Part shown: in pieces, positions 8,569 to 63,964 of the stretch
How the letters are laid out: every line of letters starts with the position of its first letter
How positions within the stretch are numbered: position 1 is the first letter of the stretch
Assembly (NCBI GenBank): GCA_964515075.1
Contig: CAZETE010000004.1
Span: 3,353-67,352, forward strand
Direction: 5' to 3'
Origin: an uncultured Actinomycetota bacterium
Lineage (GTDB): Bacteria > Actinomycetota > Geothermincolia > Geothermincolales > Geothermincolaceae
Length of the DNA stretch: 64,000 bases
Position numbers and translations under genes: made by a program
Notes under the pieces: model-generated
Database searches by the model: none
Told to the model about the DNA's origin: nothing
The model's input: only the letters and a program-made list of their open reading frames with translations

Positions 8569-10083
8569 TCAGGTCTTCCAGCGGACGCCGTCGCGGCGGT
8601 CCTCGAGCTTGATGCCCTTCTCCTCCAGGCGCGCCCGGATGTAGTCGGCGGACTCCCAGTCCCGGGCGGCGCGGGCGCGGGAGCGCAGCTCCACCAGCAG
8701 GTCGATTAGCTCCTCCGCCGGCGGCAGGTGCGCGCGCCCCGGGCGGGCCGCGGGCTCCGCGGCCTCCCGGGCTTCCCCCTCCGCCGCCGCCAGCCCGTAA
8801 GCCCGCACGCCCGCCTCGTCCAGCGGCGAGAAGAGGCCGAACACCCGGCACAGCTTGAGCAGGACGTCCCTGCCCTGCCCGGCCATGATGGTCCCTGCCG
8901 GGGTGGCGAAGAGGGCCTGCTCGTCCAGGTAGGTGTTGAGCTCGCGCGCCAGCTCGAAGACGGCGCCCAGGGCGCGGGCGGTGTTGAAGTCGTCGTCCAT
9001 GGCTTCCTCGAAGCGCCTCTCCACCTCGAGCAGGAACCCGGTGAGCTCCACCTCCCGCTCGGAGCGCGCCGGGGCCGTGATGCCTTCACGGTCGAGGAAC
9101 TCGCCCAGCGCGAAGAGGCAGTTCTCCAGGCGCTCGTAGGCCCGCTTGGCCTCCTCCAGGGCCTCCGGGCCGAAGTCGATGGGGCTGCGGTAGTGGGTCT
9201 GCAGCACCAGCATGCGCAGCGCGTCGGGGGGATACTTCTCCACGATCTCGCGGACGGTGACGATGTTCCCCAGCGACTTGGACATCTTCTCGTCGGAGAT
9301 GTTGACGAAGCCGTTGTGCATCCAGTGGCGGACGAAGGGCGACGAGCCGGAGTAGGCCTCGCTCTGGGCGATCTCGTTCTCGTGGTGGGGGAAGATGAGG
9401 TCCTGGCCGCCCCCGTGGATGTCGAAGCCCATCCCCAGGTGCTCCAGGGACATGGTGGAGCACTCGATGTGCCAGCCGGGGCGCCCCCGGCCCCAGGGGG
9501 AGTCCCAGGAGGGCTCGCCCGGCTTGGCGCTCTTCCACAGGGCGAAGTCGGCGGGGTGGCGCTTGCGCTCGTCCACCTCCACCCGCTCCCCCGCCCGCAT
9601 GTCCTCCAGGGAGCGCTTGGACAGCTTTCCGTACTGCGGGAAGGACTCCACCGAGAAGTAGACGTCCCCGTCCACCTCGTAGGCGTGCCCCTTCCCCACA
9701 AGGGCCGCGATCATCTCCGCCATCTTCTCCACGTAGGCGGTGGCGCGGGGGGTGACGTCGGGCGGCAGGACGTTCAAGGAGACCATGTCCCGCTTGAACT
9801 CCTCCTCGTAGCGGCGGGCCAGCTCCTCCGGGGTGGTGCCCTCCTCCGCGGCGCGGTTGATGATCTTGTCGTCCACGTCGGTGAAGTTCTGCACGTGGGT
9901 CACGGCGTACCCCCTGTGCAGCAGGTAGCGCTTGATGACGTCGAAGGTGAGGTAGGCCCGCCCGTTGCCCGCGTGGATGTAGTTGTAGACGGTGGGGCCG
10001 CAGACGTACATGCCGATGCGGCCCTCCTCCCGCGGCCGGAGCTCTTCCTTGCGGCCGGTCATGGTGTTGTAGGCCTTGATCAC
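8569..10083 (-). CDS. cysS: cysteine--tRNA ligase
   Basis: A 504 aa ORF ([40 protein letters not shown]...) with the KMSKS motif. Confidence 0.93.
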
Positions 10084-40345: not shown

Positions 40346-40386
40346 GGGAGCCGGGGTTCCGGGCGGGGTTATATTATAATGTGGGC

Positions 40387-41136
40387 ATGAAGAAGAACCT
40401 CTGGCTGGTGGCGCTCGGCGTGAGCCTGGCGTTCCTGTCCCTGGGACTCTACCTCGTGCACTACCTCGTCTTCCGGGATGCCCACCACATCTACATCTAC
40501 CTGGTGGGGGACCTGGCCTTCCTCCCGGTGGAGGTGCTCCTGGTCACCCTCATCGTCGACCGCATGCTGGGCATGCGCGAGAAGCGGGCGGTGATGGAGA
40601 AGATGAACATGGTCATCGGGGCCTTCTTCAGCGAGATGGGGCTGGAGCTGCTCAAGCGGTTCATAGCCTCCGGGGCCTTCCCCGGGGACCTGGCGGAAGG
40701 CGTCACCTTCACCGGGAGCTGGTCGGAGGCCGACTTCAAGCGGGCCGCCCTCGAGGCCCGCGAGTCCGACTACCGTCTGGACCCCGGGCGGGGCGGCCTG
40801 GCGGAGCTGCGGTCGTTCCTCGAGGGGGAGCGGCCCTTCTTCCTGCGCCTGCTGGAGAACCCCAACCTGCTGGAGCACGACACCTTCACCGACCTGCTCT
40901 GGGCGGTCAGCCACCTCTCGGAGGAGCTGTCCTTCCGCCGGGACCCCGACAGCCTGGGCGCCGCGGACTTCCGGCACGTCGAGAGCGACGTCCGCAGGGC
41001 CTTCCGGCTGCTCCTCTTCGAGTGGCTGCATTACCTGGCGCACCTGAAGGGCCGCTACCCCTACCTCTACTCGCTGGCCATGCGCACCAACCCCTTCGAC
41101 CGCGAGGCCCGCGCGGAGATAAGCGAGGCCTCCTGA
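40387..41136 (+). CDS. membrane-anchored hypothetical protein
   Basis: Two N-terminal transmembrane helices (MKKNLWLVALGVSLAFLSLGLYLVHYLVF...) followed by a soluble domain with no family I recognise. Confidence 0.45.
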   Translation: MKKNLWLVALGVSLAFLSLGLYLVHYLVFRDAHHIYIYLVGDLAFLPVEVLLVTLIVDRMLGMREKRAVMEKMNMVIGAFFSEMGLELLKRFIASGAFPGDLAEGVTFTGSWSEADFKRAALEARESDYRLDPGRGGLAELRSFLEGERPFFLRLLENPNLLEHDTFTDLLWAVSHLSEELSFRRDPDSLGAADFRHVESDVRRAFRLLLFEWLHYLAHLKGRYPYLYSLAMRTNPFDREARAEISEAS

Positions 41137-45428: not shown

Positions 45429-45557
45429 CGCGATCCCCTCCTTTCGATGACCTCACGGGCGGGTGGTTGCCGCCTCTACTCCATTATCGCCCATCCGCCT
45501 CGCGCCATCCAATCCGGGGCACCCGCACTCAAAGCGGCGGACGGGACGGCCGATAAT

Positions 45558-46220
45558 ATGACCGTCATGAAAAGGCTCTATCGTGCCGGGGGCGGCGCGG
45601 TCCTCGCGGCGCTCTCGTTGCTGGCAATCGTGTATATGGCGGGCTGCGGGTCGCCCCAGGCGCGGCCGGACATGGGGACGGAGACCGTCGACCCGCAGGT
45701 GGCGGCGGACTCCCTCTCCGTGAGGCTCAACGACCTGGAGGGCAAGCAGCAACAGCTGGAGCAGCGCATCCACGAACTGGTCAACCAGCGGCGGGCCGAG
45801 AACGGCCTGGCCGAGATGGCCTGGGAGGAGCGCCTGGCGGAGATCGCCCGCTACCACAGCCGGGACATGGCCGAGCGCTGCTACTTCGACCACCTGAGCC
45901 CGGAGGGCGAGGACTTCACGGCCCGCTACGCCATGTTCGGGTACGACGCCGGCAACCGGGTGGGCGACGTGGTCTACCGCGGGGCGGAGAACCTCTTCCT
46001 CAACAGCCTCTACAGGTCCTACACCTACATCAAGGACACCGGCGAGGTGGTGAAGTACGACTTCAGCACCCTCGAGGAGATCGCCCTGAGCACGGTGGAC
46101 GGGTGGATGGAGAGCGAGGGCCACCGGGAGAACCTGCTCATGCCCCACTTCATCAAGGAGGGCGTCGGCGTGGTCTTTGCCCGCGACGGCAGGATCTACA
46201 TCTCCCAGAACTTCAACTGA
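45558..46220 (+). CDS. CAP/SCP/PR-1-like domain lipoprotein
   Basis: A signal peptide and lipobox (LLAIVYMAGC), then the CAP domain (..ELVNQRRAENGLAEMAWEERLAEIARYHSRDMAERCYFDHLSPEG...HRENLL..). Confidence 0.72.
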   Translation: MTVMKRLYRAGGGAVLAALSLLAIVYMAGCGSPQARPDMGTETVDPQVAADSLSVRLNDLEGKQQQLEQRIHELVNQRRAENGLAEMAWEERLAEIARYHSRDMAERCYFDHLSPEGEDFTARYAMFGYDAGNRVGDVVYRGAENLFLNSLYRSYTYIKDTGEVVKYDFSTLEEIALSTVDGWMESEGHRENLLMPHFIKEGVGVVFARDGRIYISQNFN

Positions 46221-46270
46221 GCCCCTGACCGCGCCGGCGCCGGCACAACGGCCCGCCCGGCCCGCAAGTC

Positions 46271-46298
46271 GCAGGTTCGAGTCCTGCCAGGCGTGCCA
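46271..46298 (+). other. tRNA 3'-end-like fragment (T-arm GCAGG-TTCGAGT-CCTGC, acceptor strand, discriminator, CCA); putative integration-site remnant
   Basis: gcaggttcgagtcctgccaggcgtgcca reproduces the canonical T-stem/loop and 3' acceptor strand ending in CCA. I could not fold a matching 5' half upstream. GC content collapses immediately downstream. Confidence 0.4.
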
Positions 46299-46303
46299 GC
46301 AAT

Positions 46304-47242
46304 TCAAGCGGATGTGCGAGTATCCGCTTTTTCTTTTACATATGCCCTTGCATCGAAACTGAGTCGTATCCTGTAGTGCATGATGGTGACTATTGTCATC
46401 ACTCCGATTTGTGGAATCACAAACATCAGCACAGCAACGGGAATCGACACAACATCCGCCCAAGGATAGACAATCACGAAGGGCAAGCTGATCAGTGCAG
46501 TAATCACACAGACAAGAACAGCATCTTTCTTAAAGCTTATCCGCCTCTCTTTCTTCTTGCGATAGAAATAGTCGGCCAGCGCAACGAGGGAAACGAAGGC
46601 AAGGTAAACTACGACTGCCAATGGATACTCATAAGGCTTAGGCTTATCTAATGATTTGAAATATTCGTCCATTCTTTTATCTTCTTTTTCCAATATATAT
46701 GCCCCAAGACTATCTGCCCAATCAGCCAACTCGTCTTTCCCTTGTTGCTTATAGATTTGACTCAGCAAACCATATCCAGCAGCTTGGCTTGGCTGTCCGT
46801 ATTCAAATGCCAATGCCCTATAAGCAAGGGATTCAGCCTCGTTCAACATCCCATAATCAAGATAGGACATGGCTATAGCAATTAAAGTCGTAAAATCATA
46901 GGGGTTTGCATCAAACGCTTGCTGGAGAATCTCCGATACTCTCTCCCTGTTTCCGATTGAATTGTAGACATCGGCTAGACTTCTATAATCCCAAACAGAG
47001 AAGGACTCCGGGTCAAGCGCATAAGCTTTTTCATAGAGGCTTATAGCTTCTCTTGCCTCTTCTTGGGTAATCGAGTCCAAGCCCTTCTTGGTTATTGAAT
47101 CTGCTTGATCGATCAGCTTCTGTGCTTCGTCTTTCGATTGATCCTGTTGCGCCAATACTCCAACATTTGAGGTGGCCATAGCGGTGCACAGCAAAATAGA
47201 CCCAACGGTCAAGGCCTTCTTCCAAATGCCAAATGCATTCAT
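46304..47242 (-). CDS. secreted/membrane TPR-repeat protein (low-GC, foreign)
   Basis: The start is taken at MNAFGIWKKALTVGSILLCTAMA (signal peptide). It has TPR-like repeats and two C-terminal transmembrane helices. Confidence 0.55.
   Translation of the reverse strand: MNAFGIWKKALTVGSILLCTAMATSNVGVLAQQDQSKDEAQKLIDQADSITKKGLDSITQEEAREAISLYEKAYALDPESFSVWDYRSLADVYNSIGNRERVSEILQQAFDANPYDFTTLIAIAMSYLDYGMLNEAESLAYRALAFEYGQPSQAAGYGLLSQIYKQQGKDELADWADSLGAYILEKEDKRMDEYFKSLDKPKPYEYPLAVVVYLAFVSLVALADYFYRKKKERRISFKKDAVLVCVITALISLPFVIVYPWADVVSIPVAVLMFVIPQIGVMTIVTIMHYRIRLSFDARAYVKEKADTRTSA
46308..46337 (+). terminator. intrinsic terminator GCGGAT-GTGCGAGT-ATCCGC TTTTTCTTTT (for the CAP-domain gene)
   Basis: A 6-bp stem, an 8-nt loop and a 10-nt T-rich run. 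It lies within the 3' end of the convergent TPR gene. Confidence 0.5.
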
Positions 47243-47549
47243 ACTTAGCCTGCTCAGTTTATCGTCCTTTCTTCCCACAAAGCGAATGCCCCCTTTTCGC
47301 AAGTATTCTACCATCCATCAAGCCAGCATTGCTTTTCTACTCATCCCCACCCTCAGCTGGCGATACCCAGTATGGGGATACTGTAATCCTGTTCTGCGTT
47401 CATCAGTCTGGTTCGAACTTCGTCCACAGTGGGGTGCCAAATACAATAGTAAATCAGAGGGTATTACCTTCGTCCTGCTCTTAATGGGCCATGTTCCTTA
47501 TTAATTACCGTGCGATTTGTGTGCTACATGGTCACGCGCAAGGCGAGCC

Positions 47550-47921
47550 TCAGTCGTTTATTGCGTCCAACGCCCGTTGGCGTATCCTGTCTCGCTCTAT
47601 CACGGTGAACATCCCGGTCAAGGTAATGCTCTGCTCTCGAAGTATGCCTGACAAGATCTCTCCGGCTTCGTCCGGAGAAGCCGGAGCGAAGCGGAAGTAG
47701 ACGATGCCGTTGACATTGCGCGCCTTGTGCCGGAAGATCAGCTCTCCGTAATCACGGTCAAAGGTCAGGATGATACGATCCTCTTCGATTGCCCGTTCGA
47801 GCACTTGCCGGTCTGTCGCGCCAGGCATTTCGTCAGCGATACGAAGGACGTCATGACCACTCTCCTCGAGCAGCCTGGTACTTGACCGGGGAATGTTTTC
47901 GTTGGCAAGGAAGTCCATCAC
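47550..47921 (-). CDS. DUF5615 (COG4634) PIN-like putative toxin
   Basis: MMDFLANENIPRSSTRLLEESGHDVL...ILTFDRDYGELIF... is typical of DUF5615. Confidence 0.7.
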   Translation of the reverse strand: MMDFLANENIPRSSTRLLEESGHDVLRIADEMPGATDRQVLERAIEEDRIILTFDRDYGELIFRHKARNVNGIVYFRFAPASPDEAGEILSGILREQSITLTGMFTVIERDRIRQRALDAIND

Positions 47922-48163
47922 ACGGCTTTGGAGTCAAGAGGATAAAGGGATTCCTCACGCATGCATTCGGTCGCGAAGGCGAATATCGCCCGGATGTTCT
48001 CGGCAATAAGATTGGGGTACTCCTCAAGCACCCTGCTTTCCGTCCAGCCCTCGGCGAACAGGCCCAGGATAAATTCGACTGAGAGCCGGGTTCCTTTGAC
48101 CACGGGCTTGCCCATCAATACATCGGGATCAGAGGTAATAGTTTTTCTCCAATCGACTTCCAT
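47918..48163 (-). CDS. DUF433 (COG2442) putative antitoxin
   Basis: ..VLMGKPVVKGTRLSVEFILGLFAEGWTESRVLEEYPNLIAENIRAIFAFA.. Its stop overlaps the DUF5615 start (ATGA). Confidence 0.7.
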   Translation of the reverse strand: MEVDWRKTITSDPDVLMGKPVVKGTRLSVEFILGLFAEGWTESRVLEEYPNLIAENIRAIFAFATECMREESLYPLDSKAV

Positions 48164-48231
48164 CACGACTCCTTCCTTACAGGTATAGCGTACCACAAAG
48201 AAAAGACGGGGTCAGTCCGGGGTCCCGGGGC

Positions 48232-51183
48232 CTACTCCCCCGGCCGTTCCGGGAGGAGTTGGGGGTTGAGGATCTCCCGCAGGGTCAGGTCATCGCCGAA
48301 GACCAGCACCGGGATGCGCGCCGCGGGGTCGGCGGCGCCCCAGTCGGCGCAGGGGAAGACGGGGTAGCGCCCCGGGGCGGAGGGGCGGGCGGCCACGGAA
48401 CCGCTCACCAGGTCGACGCGCAGGCGGGCCAGCGCGGCGGGCAGGCAGAGGAACGCCGCCCCGCGGCTGTAGTAGCCGAGGGACTGGTCCATATAGCGGT
48501 TGCACTCGTAGGCGCCGCGCCGCGGCCCCTCGCGGGGGGGCTGCTCGCGGTAGAAGACGCTGTCCCAGAAGCCGCCGTTCATGTTGCAGGCCCACCAGTG
48601 CTCCAGGCCCCAGTAGCCCTCCAGCCGCCCGGCCTGCCCCTCCGGCCACCCCTCCGCCTCCAGGTAGAAGCCGAGGGCGTCGCGCCAGGCGTTCTGCGAC
48701 ATCCACTGGCAGTCGTCCCCGCCGCTGGTGTGCACGCATCCGAACTCGCGCCGCGTGGCCCGGTCCGCGGTGACCAGGTCCAGGCGCATGCGCTCCAGGT
48801 TGTCCGGCTCCAGCCCGGTCTGCCCCCCCGAGGCCAGCAGCCACAGCAGGCCGTTGGCCGGGTAGATGGAGCAGGCGTCCCGCTCGCAGGGCTGGGCGCC
48901 GGGGTCGCTGGAGACGGCGAAGTGGGCGCCCCGCCACATCGCCTCCCGCAAGGTCGCGTTGACCAGCTGCAGCCGCTCCTCGCAGGCGGCGATGAAGTCC
49001 TCGGGCCGCGCCTCCTGGGCCCCGGCCATGTCCGCCGCCGCCCGCACCGCCGCGGCCGCCTTCACCCCCAGGTAGGTCTGGTTGCGCCCGCTGATGAAGA
49101 AGAGGCGGGCCTGGTCGATGCTGTTGTCCGCGTTGACGTCGGGCAGGCCGTCTCCATCGGTGTCGCAGGAGAGGATGTACTCGGCGTAGCCCCGGACGCG
49201 GGGGAACAGCTCCCGCACCAGGGCGGTGCCGCCGGCCTGTTTCCAGTAAGCGTAGAGCAGCAGGATGAAGTCGGCGTTCTCCTCCACCTCCATGCCGAAC
49301 ATGTCGTAGGTCATGCCGATGATGCGGTTGTCCGTGCCGATGTCGTGGGACAGATAGGCGCCGATGCCGTCCTCCCGCTCGAAGAGCGTCCACTGGCGCA
49401 GCTGCCTCTCGAGCAGGTCCGGCCAGAAACTCAGGAAGAACCAGGCGCTGTTGTACTCCACGTCGATGGTGGACATGAAGTAGAAGGGCGGCCCCTCCCA
49501 GGCGGCGAACCATTCCCGGCCGTCCGGGTCGCTGACCCACCAGGCGTTGACGATGTAGTTCTGCAGGCCCAGGGCGGCCAGGCCCTTCCCCGCGGGGGTC
49601 ATGCCGCTGAGGCAGGGCTCGGAGAGCACCCCGTCGAAGAAGGCCGTCCTGGCCTCGATGTCCGCCCGCTCCGGCCCCAGCGCGTAGTCCAGCACCGCCT
49701 GAAGCGAGGTGAGGCCGGGGCCGTCGGGGCGGTTGTAGGCGAAGCTGAAGTCCCGCTCGCCCTCGACCTCCATCACCCCGTCCGGCGAGTGCGCGGCCAG
49801 CACCACGGTGCGCCGGGCCGACCCGCCGGGCGCCAGCCTGAAGCCCCAGGAGAAGCCGGAGTGGCCCCGCGGCCGCCAGGTGAAGGCCGCGTGATCGCAG
49901 GCGAGGGGGTAGCCTGCGGGGCCGGGCCAGATCCACGACGAATCCTCCACTTCCCGGTAATGCCAGTCGACGCCGGAAGCGTCGTCCAGGGCCACCGCCT
50001 CCTCGAAGCGGTACGCCGCGCCGGGGCATCCCTCGCCGGCGTAACTGCCGTCGGCGAAGTTGTAACGCTCGGAGAAGCGGTAGCCGGCCGCGCCCCCCTC
50101 GAGGGGGCGGGGCCTCTCCGCCTCCGACACGTAGCGGTGCGGCCGGGCGAAGAGGAACTCGCCCTCCTGCGGGGCCCCGGTGGGGTTGTCCAGCTCGACG
50201 TCCATGTAGAAGAAGGGGGCGCCGCTCAGCTTGAAGTCCTGCGGGTAGAAGGGCGCGGTCAGGGTGACGGTCGCCGCGAAGGGCAGCGAGGGGTCGCTGC
50301 AGCGGTAGGACACGCCGGTAATGGTCATCTCCTGGTGCATGCCGGAAAAGACGGGGTAGCGGTCGGTGAAGGGGAGGCAGCGCGCCTCCCCGCCGGGCGA
50401 GCGGAAGGCCAGCACCATCTCGGAGAGGTCGTCCGACCAGGTGCCGAGGGGGGACTGGCGCCAGCCCAGCAGCTGCGGCACCGGGTTGAGGCAGAAGCGC
50501 GAGCCGAAGCGCCCCAGCACCACCTCCGAGAGGTCCTGCCCTTCGCCGTTGGCGTAGCGGAGGGGCATGGGCCGGGGCACCCAGTGGCGGCTCTCCATCC
50601 CGTTGAACTCCAGCAGGGAGCGGCCCTGCGCCACCAGGCGCACGTAGCTGACGGTGGCCTCCCCCGCCTCGGCCTTGAAGGCGATGTCGACGCGGCCGCC
50701 CGGGGCGCGCACCCCCCGGGCGCAGGCCTCCCAGGGCACCCCGGCGCCCGCCCCGGCCGCCAGGTCGATGCCGGTCAGCTCGGGCAGGGGGACGCCGTCG
50801 GCGTAGACGGTGAAGACCCGCTCGCCCGGCGCGCGGCCCTGCCACTCCAGGCAGGAGACCTCGAGGTCGAAGACATCCCGGCGCAGGCCGCTGATGGAGT
50901 AGCAGAACTCCTTGCCCAGCCGGGCCTGGGCGAAGCGGTTGGCGTAATGGTCCAGCCCGTTGATGCCTAAAAAGCCGGGCGTGTCCAGCACCTTGCCGTA
51001 GGAGCCGCCGCCCAGCTCAACCACCAGGCGGCCGTCCGCCCCGCCGGGGGGGTGCGCCGGCCGGCGGGCCGGTGGCCCTCCCGTCTCCTTGGCGGCGGGG
51101 ACGAAGAGGCAGCAGGCCGCCAGGCCCAGCACCAGCAGCCCTGCCGCCGCCGCCGCCAGCAGGCTCATCCGCTTGTCGCTCAT
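48232..51183 (-). CDS. large secreted protein: N-terminal malectin-like carbohydrate-binding domain plus (alpha/alpha)6-barrel glycoside-hydrolase-like domain
   Basis: A signal peptide (LLVLGLAAC), a malectin-like segment (..FTVYADGVPLPELTGIDLAAGAGAG..) and a C-terminal region with six-hairpin-glycosidase-like sequence (..FAAWEGPPFYFMSTIDVEYNSAWFFLSFWPDLL..). I am unsure of the family assignment. Confidence 0.45.
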   Translation of the reverse strand: MSDKRMSLLAAAAAGLLVLGLAACCLFVPAAKETGGPPARRPAHPPGGADGRLVVELGGGSYGKVLDTPGFLGINGLDHYANRFAQARLGKEFCYSISGLRRDVFDLEVSCLEWQGRAPGERVFTVYADGVPLPELTGIDLAAGAGAGVPWEACARGVRAPGGRVDIAFKAEAGEATVSYVRLVAQGRSLLEFNGMESRHWVPRPMPLRYANGEGQDLSEVVLGRFGSRFCLNPVPQLLGWRQSPLGTWSDDLSEMVLAFRSPGGEARCLPFTDRYPVFSGMHQEMTITGVSYRCSDPSLPFAATVTLTAPFYPQDFKLSGAPFFYMDVELDNPTGAPQEGEFLFARPHRYVSEAERPRPLEGGAAGYRFSERYNFADGSYAGEGCPGAAYRFEEAVALDDASGVDWHYREVEDSSWIWPGPAGYPLACDHAAFTWRPRGHSGFSWGFRLAPGGSARRTVVLAAHSPDGVMEVEGERDFSFAYNRPDGPGLTSLQAVLDYALGPERADIEARTAFFDGVLSEPCLSGMTPAGKGLAALGLQNYIVNAWWVSDPDGREWFAAWEGPPFYFMSTIDVEYNSAWFFLSFWPDLLERQLRQWTLFEREDGIGAYLSHDIGTDNRIIGMTYDMFGMEVEENADFILLLYAYWKQAGGTALVRELFPRVRGYAEYILSCDTDGDGLPDVNADNSIDQARLFFISGRNQTYLGVKAAAAVRAAADMAGAQEARPEDFIAACEERLQLVNATLREAMWRGAHFAVSSDPGAQPCERDACSIYPANGLLWLLASGGQTGLEPDNLERMRLDLVTADRATRREFGCVHTSGGDDCQWMSQNAWRDALGFYLEAEGWPEGQAGRLEGYWGLEHWWACNMNGGFWDSVFYREQPPREGPRRGAYECNRYMDQSLGYYSRGAAFLCLPAALARLRVDLVSGSVAARPSAPGRYPVFPCADWGAADPAARIPVLVFGDDLTLREILNPQLLPERPGE

Positions 51184-56201: not shown

Positions 56202-56374
56202 GGCGCTCTCCGATCTCTTAGTGCGGCTGTGCTGCGTTCGTCGAAAGAAGCGGTCCGATTATATCACGCGGGGAGGGGAAAGGCATTGAGGGGCGGCGGG
56301 AGGCGGGGCGGAAAGGGGCCGGGCCCCGAGGTCGCGGTCCTCGAGGCCCGGCCCCGCTCCGCGGGTCGGCCCGG

Positions 56375-56857
56375 TCAGCGCAGGTCCTCGAACTCCTCCC
56401 GGGCCTCTTCCTCGGGCTGGCCCTGCAGCCGCTCCCGGGCGCGCTTGATCACCTCGAGCAGCTTGAAGCAGGTGACCTCCAGGTTGGCCAGGCGCTCGTC
56501 GGCGTAGTCCTCGGCCTCCAGCCGTATCTCGCGCGACCGGGAGTTGGCCTCCTCCATGATGCGGTCGGCGTCGGCCGTGGCCTGCTTGATTATCTCCGTC
56601 TCCGCGACGAGGGCCTCGCGCTCGGCGCGCGCCTCTTCCTTGATGCGGTCGGCCTCCTTGTAGGACTCGTCGATGAGCTCCTGCTTCTCCTTGACCATCC
56701 AGCGGGCCTGCTTCAACTCCTCCGGAAGGGAGCTGCGGAGCTCGTCCAGGAGCTCGAAGAGCTCGGTCTCGTTGACCATCACCGAGGAGGAGAACGGGAC
56801 GTGCTTGCTGGAGACGATGAAGTCCTCAATCCGGTCAAGCCTCTCGAATACGTCCAT
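56375..56857 (-). CDS. hypothetical coiled-coil protein (ATP-synthase-b-like composition)
   Basis: A 160 aa acidic, helical protein. It is the gene immediately downstream of coaD, which is the same position some helical proteins occupy in Firmicutes. Confidence 0.4.
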   Translation of the reverse strand: MDVFERLDRIEDFIVSSKHVPFSSSVMVNETELFELLDELRSSLPEELKQARWMVKEKQELIDESYKEADRIKEEARAEREALVAETEIIKQATADADRIMEEANSRSREIRLEAEDYADERLANLEVTCFKLLEVIKRARERLQGQPEEEAREEFEDLR

Positions 56858-56860
56858 CCC

Positions 56861-57367
56861 TTACGCTCCTTTCCTCTTCCTTCCGTACTTCTCGTCGAAC
56901 AGCCTGATGAGGTCTCCCTCGATCTCCTCCGGCACCAGGCCGGCGATGCTGCCGCCGTAGACGCCCAGTTCCCGCACGGCGCTGGAGCTCAGGAAGGAAT
57001 ACTCGGTCGAGGCCATCACGAAGAAGGTCTCGATGTTTTCGTCCATGATGCTGTTGATCTGCGACATCTGGAACTCGTACTCGAAGTCGCTGATGGCCCG
57101 CAGGCCCTTGACGATGGCCGTGGCGCCCAGTTCCCGGGCCAGCGGCACGAGCAGCGAATCGAAGGACCTCACCTCCACGTTGGCGAGGCCTCCGGTGGTC
57201 TTCTCGAGCAGCCGCACCCGCTCCTCCAGGCTGAACATGGGCTGCTTGGCGGCGCTGGCCGCCACGGCGATGACGAACCTGTCGAAGAAGCGGCTGGCCC
57301 GGGCGATGACGTCCAGGTGCCCGCTGGTAACGGGGTCGAAGGTCCCCGGACAGACGGCCACTCTCAT
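56861..57367 (-). CDS. coaD: phosphopantetheine adenylyltransferase
   Basis: MRVAVCPGTFDPVTSGHLDVI... shows the T/HxGH nucleotidyltransferase motif. It overlaps the rsmD stop by 4 nt. Confidence 0.88.
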   Translation of the reverse strand: MRVAVCPGTFDPVTSGHLDVIARASRFFDRFVIAVAASAAKQPMFSLEERVRLLEKTTGGLANVEVRSFDSLLVPLARELGATAIVKGLRAISDFEYEFQMSQINSIMDENIETFFVMASTEYSFLSSSAVRELGVYGGSIAGLVPEEIEGDLIRLFDEKYGRKRKGA

Positions 57368-57954
57368 GTCGGCGATGTCGCTCCTCCTTCTCCTGCCTCC
57401 GGGCGCTCCCACCCGTAGAAACCGATCTCCGTGTCCCCGTATATCTTTCTCTTGTATAACTTGATGTCCTTCGCCAGCGGCACGGCCTCCCGCCGCGCCG
57501 GCCCCTCCAGCACCAGCGTGCCCTCCGGCCCGAGCAACCCCTTTCCCAGGATAGCTAAAACAATACCCTGTAAATATTTCGTTTCAATTCTATAAGGTGG
57601 GTCGGCAAAAATCAAATCGAATGCGCCCTCGAGGCCGCCGCGTACGGCCTGATGCGCCTCGCTCCGGATCACCCGGGCCTGCCCCGCCCGGCCCACCGTT
57701 CCCAGGTTCTCATGGACCAGGGCCACGGCCCGGGACGAGCTGTCGACGAAGACGGCCTCCCGCGCGCCCCGGCTCAGGGCCTCGATGCCCAGCGCTCCGG
57801 TGCCCGCGAAGAGGTCCAGCACCCGCGCCCCGCGGACCCGGCCGCCCAGGGCGGCGAAGACCGCCTCGCGCACCCGGTCGGGCGTGGGCCGGATGCCGCT
57901 GCCCTTGAAGGCCTTGAGGCGGCGCCCCGCGTCCTCTCCCCCTATCACTCTCAT
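57364..57954 (-). CDS. rsmD: 16S rRNA (guanine966-N2)-methyltransferase
   Basis: ..DLFAGTGALGIEALSRGA...FADPPY.. are the SAM-methyltransferase motifs. Confidence 0.85.
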   Translation of the reverse strand: MRVIGGEDAGRRLKAFKGSGIRPTPDRVREAVFAALGGRVRGARVLDLFAGTGALGIEALSRGAREAVFVDSSSRAVALVHENLGTVGRAGQARVIRSEAHQAVRGGLEGAFDLIFADPPYRIETKYLQGIVLAILGKGLLGPEGTLVLEGPARREAVPLAKDIKLYKRKIYGDTEIGFYGWERPEAGEGGATSPT

Positions 57955-57967
57955 GAGACGATTATAC

Positions 57968-58056
57968 GGGGTCAGGCCCTGACGATAATTGACAAAACGC
58001 CGATGCCCCTGCAGGCCGCAGCCCAGTTTTGTCAATTATCGTCAGGGCCTGACCCC
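57968..58056. repeat. perfect 31-bp-arm inverted repeat with 27-nt loop (GGGGTCAGGCCCTGACGATAATTGACAAAAC ... GTTTTGTCAATTATCGTCAGGGCCTGACCCC)
   Basis: I checked the two arms base by base. It lies in the recG-rsmD intergenic space on the transcribed (minus) strand side. Confidence 0.7.
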
Positions 58057-58150
58057 GGATTGGGTGGGCGGGGGGGTGGGTTGGGTGGGTGGGTAGGGGG
58101 ACGGGTGGGTGGGAGGGGAGGGTAGGTGGTTGGGTGGGGGGGGGCGAGAG
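58057..58150. repeat. GGGT/GGGTG-rich tract of ~95 nt with G-quadruplex potential
   Basis: ggattgggtgggcgggggggtgggttgggtgggtgggtagggggacgggtgggtgggaggggagggtaggtggttgggtggggggggg. It is C-rich on the recG-sense strand, immediately 3' of the recG stop. Confidence 0.55.
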
Positions 58151-58155
58151 GGTGG

Positions 58156-60276
58156 TCAGGCGTGGAAGAGCCAGTCCAGGTTGGCGGAGAAGCGGCGGCG
58201 CACCTCCCGCAGCAGCTGGCGGTGCTCCTCCGCCTCCAGCCGCGGGTCCTCCTCCACCAGCTGGAAGGCGTCCCTGCGCGCCCGCTGCAGCAGCGGGTAA
58301 TCCCGGCGCAGCTTGGCCAGGCGCAGGTCCGGGAGGCCCGACTGGCGCTCCGAGAAGAGGGAGCCCTCGCCGCGCAGCTCCAGGTCCACCTCGGCCAGCT
58401 TGAAGCCGTCGGAGATGTCCTGCATAGCCTCCATGCGCCGCTGCGCCTCCTCGTTCTCGGCCGCGGAGAGCAGCAGGCACCAGGACTTGTGGCTCCCCCG
58501 GCCCACCCGCCCGCGCAGCTGATGCAGCTGCGACAGGCCGAAGCGGTCGGCGTCCTCCACCACCATCACCGTGGCGTTGGGGATGTCGATGCCCACCTCT
58601 ATGACGGTGGTGGACACCAGCACGTCCGAGCGCCCCTCGCGGAAGTCCTGCATGGCCCGGTCCTTCTCGGCCTTCTTCATCTGCCCGTGCAGCAGGCCGA
58701 CGGTCCGCCCGGGGAACACCCCGCGCAGGTTGTCCGCCTCGCTCTGCGCGGCCCTGGCCTCCAGGCGCTCGGACTCCTCCACCAGCGGGCAGACCACGAA
58801 GACCTGCCGCCCCGCCCGCATCTCCCGCTCGGCCAGCTCGTAGGCCTCGGCCCTTTCGCGCGGGTGGAAGACCCGGGTGACGGTCTCCGCCCGCCCCGCC
58901 GGCAGCTCGTCCAGCACCGAGATCTCCAGGTCGCCGTAGAGGGTGAGGGAGAGGGTGCGCGGGATGGGGGTGGCGGTCATGATCAGGTAGTGGGGGTGCT
59001 TGCCCTTCTCCTTCAGCGACACCCGCTGGCGCACCCCGAAGCGGTGCTGTTCGTCGACGACGACCAGCCCCAGGGCCGCGAAATCCACGTCCCGCTGGAT
59101 GAGGGCGTGGGTGCCCACCAGGACGTCCACCTCTCCCGCGGCCGCCGCCTCGAGGGTGCGCCGGCGCTCCGCCTCGGGCGTGGACGAGGTGAGCAGGGCG
59201 ATGCGCAGGGAGGGCACGCCCTCCGCCATGCGCTCGAGCGTGGCGTGGTGCTGCTCCGCCAGCACCTCGGTGGGGGCCATGAAGGCCCCCTGCATCCCGT
59301 TCTCCACCGCAAGCAGCAGGGCCAGCAGGGCCACCAGGGTCTTGCCCGAACCCACCTCCCCCTGGAGCAGGCGGTTCATGGGATGGCTCTCGCCCATGTC
59401 CGCGGCGATCTCCGAGAAGGAACGCCGCTGCGCCCCGGTCAGGCGGAAGGGCAGGCCGGCGAGGAAGGCCTCGACCAACTCCCCGGGCGGCGCGTGGGGC
59501 ACGCTTACGCTCTCCTCCCGCACCCGCTTGCGCCGGATGGCCAGGCCGGCCTGGAGGATGAAGAGCTCCTCGTAGATCATGCGCCGCCTGGCCTCCTTCA
59601 GAGCCTTCAAGCCGCTGGGGAAGTGGATCTCGCGCAGGGCCGCGGAGTGGGAGGGCACGCGGTACCTCGCCGTCAGCCTCTCAGGCAGGGGGTCGGGAAG
59701 CTCCCCGTATTCGTCCAGGGCCTGCTTGACCAGGCGGCGCAGCAGGGAAGCGGGGACTTTCTGGCTGGCCGGGTGGAGCGGGATGACCCGCCCGGTGTTG
59801 AGCGTCTCCACCCCCACCTCCCCGGGGTCGTTGAGGACGTCGTAGGCCGGGTAGGTCATCTGGAGCTGGTTGTAGCGGTACTGCACCTTGCCGGAGAAGG
59901 CCACCTCCGTGCCCACCTTGAGCCGGTCGGCCTGCCAGGGCTGGTTGAACCAGACCCCGTAGAGGTAGGCGGTCCCGTCGTAGACCCCCACCTGCAGGAC
60001 GCTCTGCCGCTGCGCCGTCTTCCGCTCGTCCACCCTGCGCACCGTCCCCACCACGGTGACCTCCTCGCCGATGCGCACCTGGCGGATGGGGACGACCTGG
60101 CTGCGGTCGAGGTAGCGCCGGGGGAAGTGGTAGACCAGCCCCTCCACCGTCTCGATGCCCATGGAAGCGAGGTGGCGGCGGATGCCCGGGCCGACGCCCT
60201 TCACCGCGTCGGCGGGCCGCTCGAGGGCGAGGTAGTTCCTCTCCCGCAGCTCCCTCAGGTCCTCCGGATCGTCCAT
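58156..60276 (-). CDS. recG: ATP-dependent DNA helicase RecG
   Basis: A wedge domain plus SF2 helicase motifs (..GEVGSGKT.., DEQHRFG, ..QLRGRVGRG..). The start is MDDPEDL within a longer ORF. Confidence 0.92.
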   Translation of the reverse strand: MDDPEDLRELRERNYLALERPADAVKGVGPGIRRHLASMGIETVEGLVYHFPRRYLDRSQVVPIRQVRIGEEVTVVGTVRRVDERKTAQRQSVLQVGVYDGTAYLYGVWFNQPWQADRLKVGTEVAFSGKVQYRYNQLQMTYPAYDVLNDPGEVGVETLNTGRVIPLHPASQKVPASLLRRLVKQALDEYGELPDPLPERLTARYRVPSHSAALREIHFPSGLKALKEARRRMIYEELFILQAGLAIRRKRVREESVSVPHAPPGELVEAFLAGLPFRLTGAQRRSFSEIAADMGESHPMNRLLQGEVGSGKTLVALLALLLAVENGMQGAFMAPTEVLAEQHHATLERMAEGVPSLRIALLTSSTPEAERRRTLEAAAAGEVDVLVGTHALIQRDVDFAALGLVVVDEQHRFGVRQRVSLKEKGKHPHYLIMTATPIPRTLSLTLYGDLEISVLDELPAGRAETVTRVFHPRERAEAYELAEREMRAGRQVFVVCPLVEESERLEARAAQSEADNLRGVFPGRTVGLLHGQMKKAEKDRAMQDFREGRSDVLVSTTVIEVGIDIPNATVMVVEDADRFGLSQLHQLRGRVGRGSHKSWCLLLSAAENEEAQRRMEAMQDISDGFKLAEVDLELRGEGSLFSERQSGLPDLRLAKLRRDYPLLQRARRDAFQLVEEDPRLEAEEHRQLLREVRRRFSANLDWLFHA

Positions 60277-62372: not shown

Positions 62373-62494
62373 CCCGCGTCCTCCTCCCGCGTTCCGGGCC
62401 TTCCCCGGAGCGCCCGCATCCGCGTTGGGGCGGGGAGGGCCCGGGGGCGACCTCGTTCCGGAGTCAATGGCCTGTCCATCATCTGAGCATTATA

Positions 62495-63964
62495 TCACTC
62501 GCGGAAGAATACCCGGTTGCGCCCGGATTCCTTGGCCTCGTAAAGGGCGGAGTCGGCCTTGGCCACGATGTCCGACCGGCTGGTTATCCCGGCCGAGGGG
62601 TAGCAGGTCACGCCCTGGCTGACGGTGACCTTGAGCCCCTTGCCGTGGCTGGCCATGAAGTCGTGGCTCTCCACCGCCCGGCGGATGCGCTCGGCCGTCT
62701 GCACCGCCTCGGGCAGGTTGGTCTCGGGCAGGAGGATGGCGAACTCCTCGCCGCCGTAGCGGGCCAGCAGGTCCATGGTGCGCAGGCACCCCTTGACCAG
62801 GTCCGCCATCTCCTTCAATATCTCGTCGCCGTAGAGGTGCCCGTAGGTGTCGTTGATCCGCTTGAAGAAGTCGATGTCCAGCATGATCAGGGAGAAGATG
62901 GTGCCGTACCTGTCCGAGCGCTTGTACTCCTTCTCGAAGAGCTCCTGGAAGAAGCGGTGGTTGTAGATGCGGGTCAGCCCGTCGGTGATGGCCAGGCGCT
63001 TGGCCGACTCGTAGAGGCGCGCGTTGTCCAGGACCATGGTGACCTCGTTGAGGATGAGGTTGAGCAGGGCCGGGGCGTCGCGTTTGAAGGCCGGGGTGGC
63101 CGGGCCCGCCAGCAGCAGCACCCCCACGATCTTCTTCTGGGCGGTCAGCGGCACGTGGAAGCAGGCCGGCGCCCTCTGCCCCTCGACCCCCTCCACCCTC
63201 AGCTCCTCGTTGAAAACGACCGGGTTGAGCTCCTCGACCCCCCTCCTCTCCCAGGCGTAGCCCACCGCGACGTCGACGAGGGCGCCGTAGAACTCCTCGA
63301 GGGAGGCGTCGGTATATTCCCGGTTGGGGTAGACGAAGAGGTCGTTCTCCTCGAAGAGGAGCAGCCCGCCCAGGTTGTAGCCGGCCAGCTTGCCGATGAT
63401 CTCGAAGACGGAGCGGATGGTCTCGGAGTAGTCCTGCAGGGTGACGGAGAGGCCGGCGATCTCGTTGAGCACGGTGGTCTCGTAGAGCTTGGTGTCCAGC
63501 AGGTCCATGACCTTGTCGATGACGTAATCCTCGGTGACCTCCCGGGTGCGCCGGCGGGCCGCCTCCCGGGCCTGGCCGGCCTCCTTCCCCTTCTCCAGCA
63601 GCCCCTCGACGGCCTCGAGGAGGGTCTCGGGCTTGAAGCCCTTGGTGATGTAGGCGTCGGCCCCGGTCTTCAAGCCCCAGAACATGTCGCTCTTCTGCTC
63701 CCTGCCGGTGAGCATGATGACGGGTATCCACGAGGTCTGGGGGTCGTCCTTGAGCAGCCGGCAGACCTGGTAGCCCTTGATCTTGGGCATCTCGATGTCC
63801 AGCATGATCAGGTCGGGCAGCAGGGAGTAGGCCCGGCTGACCGCCTCCACCCCGTCCCAGGCCACGTCCACCTCGTAGCCCTCTTTCTCCAGGATGGAGC
63901 TGTTGACCTTCACGACCAGCTTGTTGTCGTCGGCCAGCAGGATGTGCGCCTTCGGAGCCATTTC
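62495..63964 (-). CDS. response-regulator receiver / GAF-like / GGDEF diguanylate cyclase
   Basis: A REC domain (..ILLADDN...MLDIEMP.., phospho-Asp context), a central sensory domain and a GGDEF domain (..RYGGEEFAILL..). Confidence 0.8.
   Translation of the reverse strand, partial: EMAPKAHILLADDNKLVVKVNSSILEKEGYEVDVAWDGVEAVSRAYSLLPDLIMLDIEMPKIKGYQVCRLLKDDPQTSWIPVIMLTGREQKSDMFWGLKTGADAYITKGFKPETLLEAVEGLLEKGKEAGQAREAARRRTREVTEDYVIDKVMDLLDTKLYETTVLNEIAGLSVTLQDYSETIRSVFEIIGKLAGYNLGGLLLFEENDLFVYPNREYTDASLEEFYGALVDVAVGYAWERRGVEELNPVVFNEELRVEGVEGQRAPACFHVPLTAQKKIVGVLLLAGPATPAFKRDAPALLNLILNEVTMVLDNARLYESAKRLAITDGLTRIYNHRFFQELFEKEYKRSDRYGTIFSLIMLDIDFFKRINDTYGHLYGDEILKEMADLVKGCLRTMDLLARYGGEEFAILLPETNLPEAVQTAERIRRAVESHDFMASHGKGLKVTVSQGVTCYPSAGITSRSDIVAKADSALYEAKESGRNRVFFRE

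Follow-up and report, generated by a model that had tools for sequence, protein, structure and literature searches.

A lineage-specific palindrome between recG and the leaderless rsmD promoter of an uncultured actinobacterium

The recG–rsmD junction and its palindrome

The window, that is, the whole 64-kb stretch of DNA that was analysed, carries recG, rsmD and coaD on its minus strand, together with housekeeping genes that include gltX, radA, cysS, clpC, lysS, greA and glyA, and it contains no transposase, no tRNA and no Rfam family; across the whole window, no known RNA family reached the gathering threshold. The closest named relatives of the RecG protein belong to Actinomycetota MAGs, including Candidatus Solincola, with 59–64% identity, and the organism is therefore considered a deep-branching, uncultured actinobacterium. 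Following the direction of transcription, the recG stop codon is succeeded by a C-rich tract, a long palindrome and the TATAAT-N6-ATG of rsmD, as listed here in the same order:

58156–60276, minus strand: recG, 706 aa (open frame to 60420; Pfam RecG_wedge, DEAD, Helicase_C and RecG_dom3_C; TGA at 58158–58156)
58061–58152, minus strand: rut-like, hypervariable tract of 92 nt, rich in C and poor in G on the mRNA strand of recG (67 C, 3 G, 15 A, 7 T)
58026–58057, minus strand: distal arm, 5' in the recG transcript, complementary to 57967–57998 over all 32 nt; identical in the second assembly (L031, see below)
57999–58025, no strand assigned: central 27 nt, which contains CCTGCAGG and folds, with a predicted 4-nt apical loop; 1 substitution in L031
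57967–57998, minus strand: proximal arm, 3' in the recG transcript, covering −13 to −44 of the rsmD promoter
57971–57983, no strand assigned: sub-palindrome GTCAGG-C-CCTGAC of the proximal arm, with its twin at 58041–58053
57961–57966, minus strand: TATAAT, the −10 box of rsmD, which begins 12 nt before the ATG, in a leaderless arrangement
57364–57954, minus strand: rsmD (16S rRNA m2G966 methyltransferase), 196 aa (Pfam Cons_hypoth95, E = 8e-48)
56861–57367, minus strand: coaD (phosphopantetheine adenylyltransferase), second gene of the promoter's unit (Pfam CTP_transf_like)

The placement of the repeat downstream of recG, as given in a preliminary description of this DNA, is confirmed by the Pfam domains and by the stop codon at 58156–58158, and a database protein that is 100% identical to the recG product, P0126, likewise has 706 aa. 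Residues 1–180 of RsmD align to positions 1–181 of the 182 positions of Cons_hypoth95, and the homologues are named RsmD and start with MR(V/I)IGGE; an N-terminally extended RsmD is contradicted by the Pfam alignment, which starts from residue 1, and by the homologues. The coaD gene overlaps the rsmD stop codon, and both the gene order and the 4-nt overlap are identical in L031. The spacer between recG and rsmD measures 201 nt in the window; within it, the hairpin starts 98 nt past the recG stop codon and 4 nt past the C-rich tract, its stem ends only 13 nt from the rsmD start, and the UAUAAU that represents the −10 box of the next gene directly abuts the stem end.

The palindrome had been described as a 31-bp inverted repeat at 57968–58056, and its arms (57968–57998 and 58026–58056) indeed match base for base, with full complementarity at a distance of 27 nt; one extra base on each side brings the perfect pairing to 32 bp (57967–57998 and 58026–58057) and, when one mismatch is allowed, the arms reach 35 nt and the element spans 57964–58060, 97 bp in total. 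The motifs TTGACAAAAC/GTTTTGTCAA reported for the arms are present in them. As for the 27-nt loop, the spacing is right, but the loop is not fully open, since these central nucleotides are partly self-complementary and add 8 inner pairs, which leads to a predicted hairpin of 40 pairs closed by a 4-nt apical loop. This near-perfect 97-bp palindrome is genuine and far beyond chance. The arm match was found in 0 of 100 dinucleotide shuffles, and it is by far the longest and cleanest of the 23 inverted repeats in the 64-kb window. The secondary-structure analysis that had been suggested as a check gave −75.2 kcal/mol for the RNA of the recG strand versus −33.8 ± 3.5 kcal/mol for shuffles (z = −11.8), and −45.3 kcal/mol for the DNA fold (z = −13.0). 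The GC content of the palindrome, about 55–58%, is lower than the 69% of the genome, and its ends read CGGGG.../...CCCCG, with CGTC only inside the arm. Moreover, each arm includes a 13-bp sub-palindrome of the form GTCAGG-N-CCTGAC, the two copies being 70 bp apart, and GTCAGGNCCTGAC has only two matches in the window, one in each arm, even with one mismatch.

Some other identities for the element were considered and rejected. A plant miRNA precursor, retrieved by a relaxed scan of RNA families, scored 35 bits against a cut-off of 230 and represents a generic match to a long hairpin. The only open frame across the palindrome shares words with no protein in 5.8 billion sequences, which discards a coding element, and none of the called proteins contains its translation. 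Sigma-70-type promoters starting from the TTGACA of the arms lack a −10 box at 16–18 nt on both strands, and the distance from the TTGTCA of the proximal arm to TATAAT is 23 nt. Surveying the hairpins behind every gene did not help to discriminate, because any 100-nt piece of such GC-rich DNA folds to about −40 kcal/mol.

Leaderless actinobacterial genes carry TANNNT around 12 nt upstream of the start codon and have no Shine-Dalgarno sequence (PMC3160421). The rsmD promoter fits this signature both in the position of its TATAAT and in the missing Shine-Dalgarno sequence, none being found upstream of the gene. Counting both strands, TATAAT occurs only 13 times in the 69%-GC window, and 12 of these 13 sites have a GC3-supported start no more than about 120 nt downstream; another clear TATAAT-N6-ATG is located at 40375 (+), and at 62494 the TATAAT comes immediately after a stop codon.

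On the other side of the palindrome, the C-rich tract is G-rich and G4-capable on the plus strand, with degenerate CCCA/TGGG repeats that TRF reports as TGGG. Its best 78-nt window (58066–58143) holds 58 C and 2 G, being about 5 times more extreme than anything elsewhere in the 64-kb window, and the complete 92-nt tract contains 52 YC dimers. RhoTermPredict (PMC6407284) looks for a 78-nt window in which the C/G ratio is above 1 and C residues recur at regular intervals, with a hairpin no more than 150 nt away; the tract exceeds these values many times over, and the hairpin follows 4 nt downstream.

The junction in a second assembly and in relatives

The same junction is found in contig L031, which derives from the independent ENA assembly ERZ3460579 of the same species and shares 98.7% identity with the window across 7.2 kb. 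The palindrome is present there with 3 substitutions in 91 positions and identical flanks; the distal arm has no change, the proximal arm has two (57995 and 57987) and the centre has one. Both changes in the arm break pairs (A-U to A.G and A-U to A.A) and are uncompensated, thus there is no sign of selection for pairing, and no covariation appears in the stem between the two sequences compared. The rest of the L031 contig differs at 0.6%, and set against 11 changes in the 706 third codon positions of recG, the 3 in 91 indicate that the palindrome changes at about the neutral rate, although these counts of strain differences are indicative only, given the 3.4x coverage of L031 and a probable 1-nt error in its recG.

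Aligned over 132 columns, the C-rich tracts of the two assemblies show 24 mismatches and 37 gap columns, compared with a difference of 0.6% elsewhere, and the tract of L031 is about 36 nt longer. This tract is either hypervariable or hard to assemble, and it is clearly slippage-prone. Assemblies tend to break in it, and contig L039 ends there. At about position 3125 of L031 (about 58165 of the window), a 1-nt deletion fuses recG in frame to the tract, so that a protein of 756 aa is called; the deletion is most likely a sequencing error, but the fusion illustrates that a Pro/Thr/His-rich tail could readily arise from the tract.

The comparison was extended to 12 further contigs with the order recG-rsmD-coaD, found via RsmD homologues. 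TATAAT-N6/7-ATG is kept in 11 of the 12 (L031, L001, L034/L038, L033, L003-5, L032 and L035-37) and is missing from L002. The distance from the recG stop codon to the rsmD ATG amounts to −4 nt in L002 (an ATGA overlap), 14 nt in L033 (TGA-C-TATAAT), 68 nt in L003-5, 116 nt in L001, 139 nt in L032, 156 nt in L035-37, more than 165 nt in L038, 201 nt in the window and about 237 nt in L031, and the spacer sequences are unalignable between lineages. A strong fold in this slot is seen only in the window and L031; that of L001 is weak (z = −2.2), the values for L003, L032 and L035 are −0.45, +0.76 and −1.09, L038 has no hairpin, and L033 and L002 have nearly no spacer. Since these relatives do without a strong hairpin in the slot, the hairpin is dispensable. 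Among the contigs compared, this palindrome is present only in the species of the window, and it is therefore a lineage-specific filling of a fast-evolving slot. If the ancestral slot was compact, the palindrome may represent an insertion, and if it was long, the short forms may represent deletions.

Two of the relatives show other features in the slot. In L001, whose RsmD is 83% identical, a different palindromic cluster lies at 9900–9988, with GTCATTGCGAGGAGCGGAGCG facing two direct copies of ACGCTCCGCTCGCGATGAC, and ends 2 nt before TATAAT; a literature search with the sequence of this palindrome returned unrelated primer matches only. In L038, with 77% RsmD identity, the arm is weakly matched by AGCCCCTGAC...AATTGACGGAACG, which scores 20–22 (shuffled sequence, 14.4 ± 2.1); equally high scores came from 21 of 1000 shuffles (p about 0.02).

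A proposed transcript end and the competing explanations

The best explanation for this arrangement, held here tentatively, is that the species-specific palindrome and the C-rich tract cap or terminate recG transcripts before the leaderless promoter of rsmD-coaD. From the position, strand and strength of the hairpin, the base content of the tract and the conservation of the leaderless promoter, we infer the following course of events. Transcription of recG would first yield a 92-nt unstructured, C-rich and G-poor RNA that would be an ideal loading site for Rho, and next the 40-bp hairpin of −75 kcal/mol, directly followed by UAUAAU, which could pause or dislodge the RNA polymerase. The hairpin could do so unaided at the weak AU-rich hybrid, as a suboptimal intrinsic terminator; more probably, Rho and/or NusG would take part. 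Afterwards, the hairpin could shield the 3' end of recG from exonucleases, or RNase III could cut it, a perfect 32-bp duplex being a substrate of this enzyme. In this way, read-through would be kept away from the promoter, whose transcripts need to have the rsmD AUG as their very first nucleotides; such insulation would matter because read-through RNA would bury this AUG, which has no ribosome-binding site. The palindrome itself could have originated in the lineage by insertion or by inverted duplication, and the host would have no strict need for it, because the relatives do without it.

With regard to intrinsic termination, mycobacterial RNA polymerase needs a U-tract and NusG helps at suboptimal terminators, according to PMC3993855. 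A terminator scan of 57300–58700 found 0 sites, in agreement with the earlier remark that no U-tract follows on the recG strand, and the stem tail UAUAAUCGU has 4 U in 9 positions, which falls short of the 7–9-nt U-tract; the other component of an intrinsic terminator, a stable, GC-containing stem-loop where the unit ends, is present with its 40 bp. Canonical terminators formed by a hairpin plus a U-tract are not enriched in comparison with shuffled sequence (6 versus 5.9 expected, 11 versus 6.4, and 11 versus 9.1), and other termination modes are therefore to be expected. None of the 48 window ORFs scanned against Pfam is a rho gene.

The junction resembles a Rho-dependent terminator (PMC6407284) in its C-rich, G-poor transcript stretch of at least 78 nt, in the hairpin within 150 nt and in its location at a gene end. 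However, its C/G ratio of 29 and its stem of 32+8 bp are far beyond the usual, its tract is hypervariable between strains, and termination by Rho is a prediction. It is also similar to intrinsic terminators, including the suboptimal or 'tail-less' actinobacterial ones (PMC3993855), as a stable hairpin at the 3' end precedes an A/U-rich hexamer, whereas the 7–9-nt U-tract is lacking, the next gene's −10 box serves as the 'tail' and the stem, as had already been pointed out, surpasses the normal length, being 3–4 times the usual. By analogy, the palindrome would be closest in its action to a terminator of the Rho type or to a suboptimal intrinsic one, and in appearance it is closest to a MITE such as Correia or ERIC.

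The existence of relatives without the hairpin, the neutral-rate drift and the absence of a U-tract count against a required function, and the hairpin is longer than any of the proposed roles needs. The palindrome belongs to a kind already known, extragenic palindromes that form hairpins where genes end, and this single lineage-specific hairpin of an uncultured organism gives no sign of a new molecular system or mechanism. Nevertheless, if hairpin and tract truly end recG transcripts, they would constitute a natural case of insulation of a leaderless gene from upstream read-through and would show how GC-rich Actinomycetota without canonical U-tract terminators mark the ends of their transcripts. 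In addition, the slot, compact in some relatives and occupied by unrelated palindromes in others, could be regarded as a small natural experiment on the origin of such modules. The preliminary description had named a single-copy element at the recG transcript end as the outcome that would speak against it, and the evidence favours precisely this reading, with a 3' end that is predicted.

A rather unlikely explanation is that of a palindromic mobile element of the MITE, foldback or REP type, selfish and non-autonomous, which would have landed in an AT-rich spot by the −10 box in a GC-rich genome and would have no function for the host. Its presence or absence differs between lineages while the flanks of the junction are conserved, the perfect arms suggest a young element, the L001 slot holds a different palindromic cluster, the GC content is below that of the genome, and the change between strains is close to the neutral rate; all of these are consistent with a mobile origin. 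Like the MITEs Correia/CREE, ERIC and RUP (PMC3184786), the element is about 100 bp in length, non-coding, intergenic and adjacent to a promoter, has long terminal inverted repeats that would form a long RNA hairpin and varies in presence between lineages. Its 32-bp arms (35 with one mismatch), its 27-nt core and its 97 bp in total, below the limit of about 400 bp, and its TIR-like arms match the description of MITEs in the same source, but it shows no target-site duplication, no second copy in the sequence searched and no known cognate IS. The flanks of the palindrome are ...CCCAATC and TATAATCG (on the minus strand, ...ACCCAATC and TATAATCGTC), and the check for target-site duplications that had been proposed for them came out negative, as there is no direct repeat at any plausible boundary of the palindrome.

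In the searches for further copies, only the two known arms were recovered within the 64-kb window with up to 3 mismatches allowed, and blastn-short against 40 sequences (381 kb, including about 130 kb from relatives) gave no further copy, nor does L031 hold a second one. The exact 18-mer CTGACGATAATTGACAAA was scanned against 185,579 species-representative genomes, JGI metagenomes and IMG/VR, collections from which the source genome is judged to be absent because no locus gave the expected double match. The scan returned 9 genome contigs, 16 metagenome contigs and 0 viral contigs, all 25 with a single match; as these matches end just outside the 18-mer (20–24 of the 31 arm positions), they are attributed to chance. 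The inverted repeats of Tn3-type transposons also begin with GGGGTC; these known transposon ends were discarded, since blastn against plasmids and phages found nothing better than E = 0.09, with no similarity and no TIR match. Moreover, the window encodes no transposase or RAYT-like gene.

REP units have 20–40 bp, a high copy number and a terminal GTAG or CGTC tag (PMC3733652). The palindrome shares with REP/BIME (PMC3733652), and with SPRITE, a terminator-like repeat of Streptococcus pneumoniae mentioned in PMC3184786, an extragenic position after a coding region, the codirectional genes and a plausible RNA hairpin, but neither the size, nor the copy number, nor the tag of REPs is seen, and given its 97 bp and its untagged ends it does not qualify as a REP. 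Of the proposed REP/MITE-like nature, what persists is the lineage-specific filling and the MITE-like size and TIRs, while the duplication, the tag and a transposase in the window are missing.

The palindrome might also be a neutral by-product of replication, generated by inverted duplication or by quasi-palindrome 'correction' through template switching on an older sequence upstream of the promoter, and functionless; this we consider improbable. The weak arm match of L038, which has no hairpin, would fit an older single-copy motif that was later duplicated in inverted orientation, and both the slippage-prone neighbouring tract and the neutral-rate change of the palindrome agree with such an origin. 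However, the similarity in L038 is marginal, the closer relative L001 shows none, and the 27-nt non-repeated centre is explained no better than by an insertion.

An extension of the preferred reading, in which hairpin and tract end recG transcripts, is that both form a self-contained and possibly mobile 'terminator-insulator cassette' that inserts at junctions between a stop codon and the −10 box of leaderless genes in deep-branching Actinomycetota, an idea that must be deemed speculative and quite improbable. Such a cassette would keep the upstream transcript apart from a promoter that has to initiate at the AUG, its hypermutable C/G4 tract would tune the amount of read-through, and the palindrome in the L001 slot would be a second, independent cassette.

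Still less probable is regulation of the rsmD-coaD promoter through the palindrome, either as the operator of a binding protein or as a cruciform driven by supercoiling, even though the proximal arm spans −13 to −44 of this promoter, each arm has a 13-bp palindrome, the proximal one being located in the promoter spacer, and the arm 12-mer GACGATAATTGA coincides with the −10 region upstream of panE, a gene of the CoA pathway, in L002, L003 and L005. The long operator suggested at the outset indeed overlaps the promoter through its arm, yet its sequence is not conserved at the orthologous rsmD promoters; furthermore, the sub-palindrome is found nowhere else in the window, the 32-bp perfect symmetry far exceeds what a regulator needs, the L031 substitutions in the arm are uncompensated and no regulator gene lies beside the palindrome. 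The panE promoter of the window differs (GGGCGATAATGGA), and the 12-mer match is therefore most simply a shared −10-like GATAAT. The coordinates of GACGATAATTGA upstream of panE (ketopantoate reductase) are 20494–20505 in L002, 19079–19090 in L003 and 9873–9884 in L005, and the window counterpart with GGGCGATAATGGA is at 45480–45495. The recombination hotspot that was also put forward found nothing in its support. Finally, an assembly or chimera artefact, conceivable in that amplification chimeras can make perfect foldbacks, has a negligible probability, as the palindrome is flanked by collinear conserved genes in the interior of a long contig and is not artefactual because the independent assembly ERZ3460579 carries it, with 3 substitutions and identical flanks.

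Other junctions and a low-GC island in the window

The next junction downstream, at 56263–56377 (−), contains a 23-bp GC-rich hairpin (56308–56362), a C-rich stretch and TGA-TATAAT; it shares its ingredients with the recG–rsmD junction in a different order and, likewise, has no U-tract. A compact junction in which a stop codon, TATAAT-N6 and ATG follow one another occurs at 62480–62497 (−) and 40375–40389 (+) of the window and at 309–325 of L033, thus recurring in the clade. These compact junctions are candidate internal leaderless promoters placed right behind the stop codon of the preceding gene, and the small ORF at 62482 is a candidate DUF1858 gene, as in the relatives. At 40373–40380, two TATAAT boxes on opposite strands overlap (ATATTATAATGT), and this pair is situated between the region of a WYL/WCX-domain gene and the leaderless gene that starts at 40387.

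Elsewhere in the window, a 2-kb island of low GC content (46220–48232; 39–56% versus 69%) separates genes for a CAP-domain protein and a GH116 protein that are adjacent in the relatives L001-L003, and it looks horizontally acquired. Its genes encode a TPR/DUF3021 membrane protein and a DUF433/DUF5615 pair that resembles a toxin-antitoxin system, and the only convincing canonical terminator of the window, with a hairpin plus a T-run, is found within the island at 46306–46329 (+).
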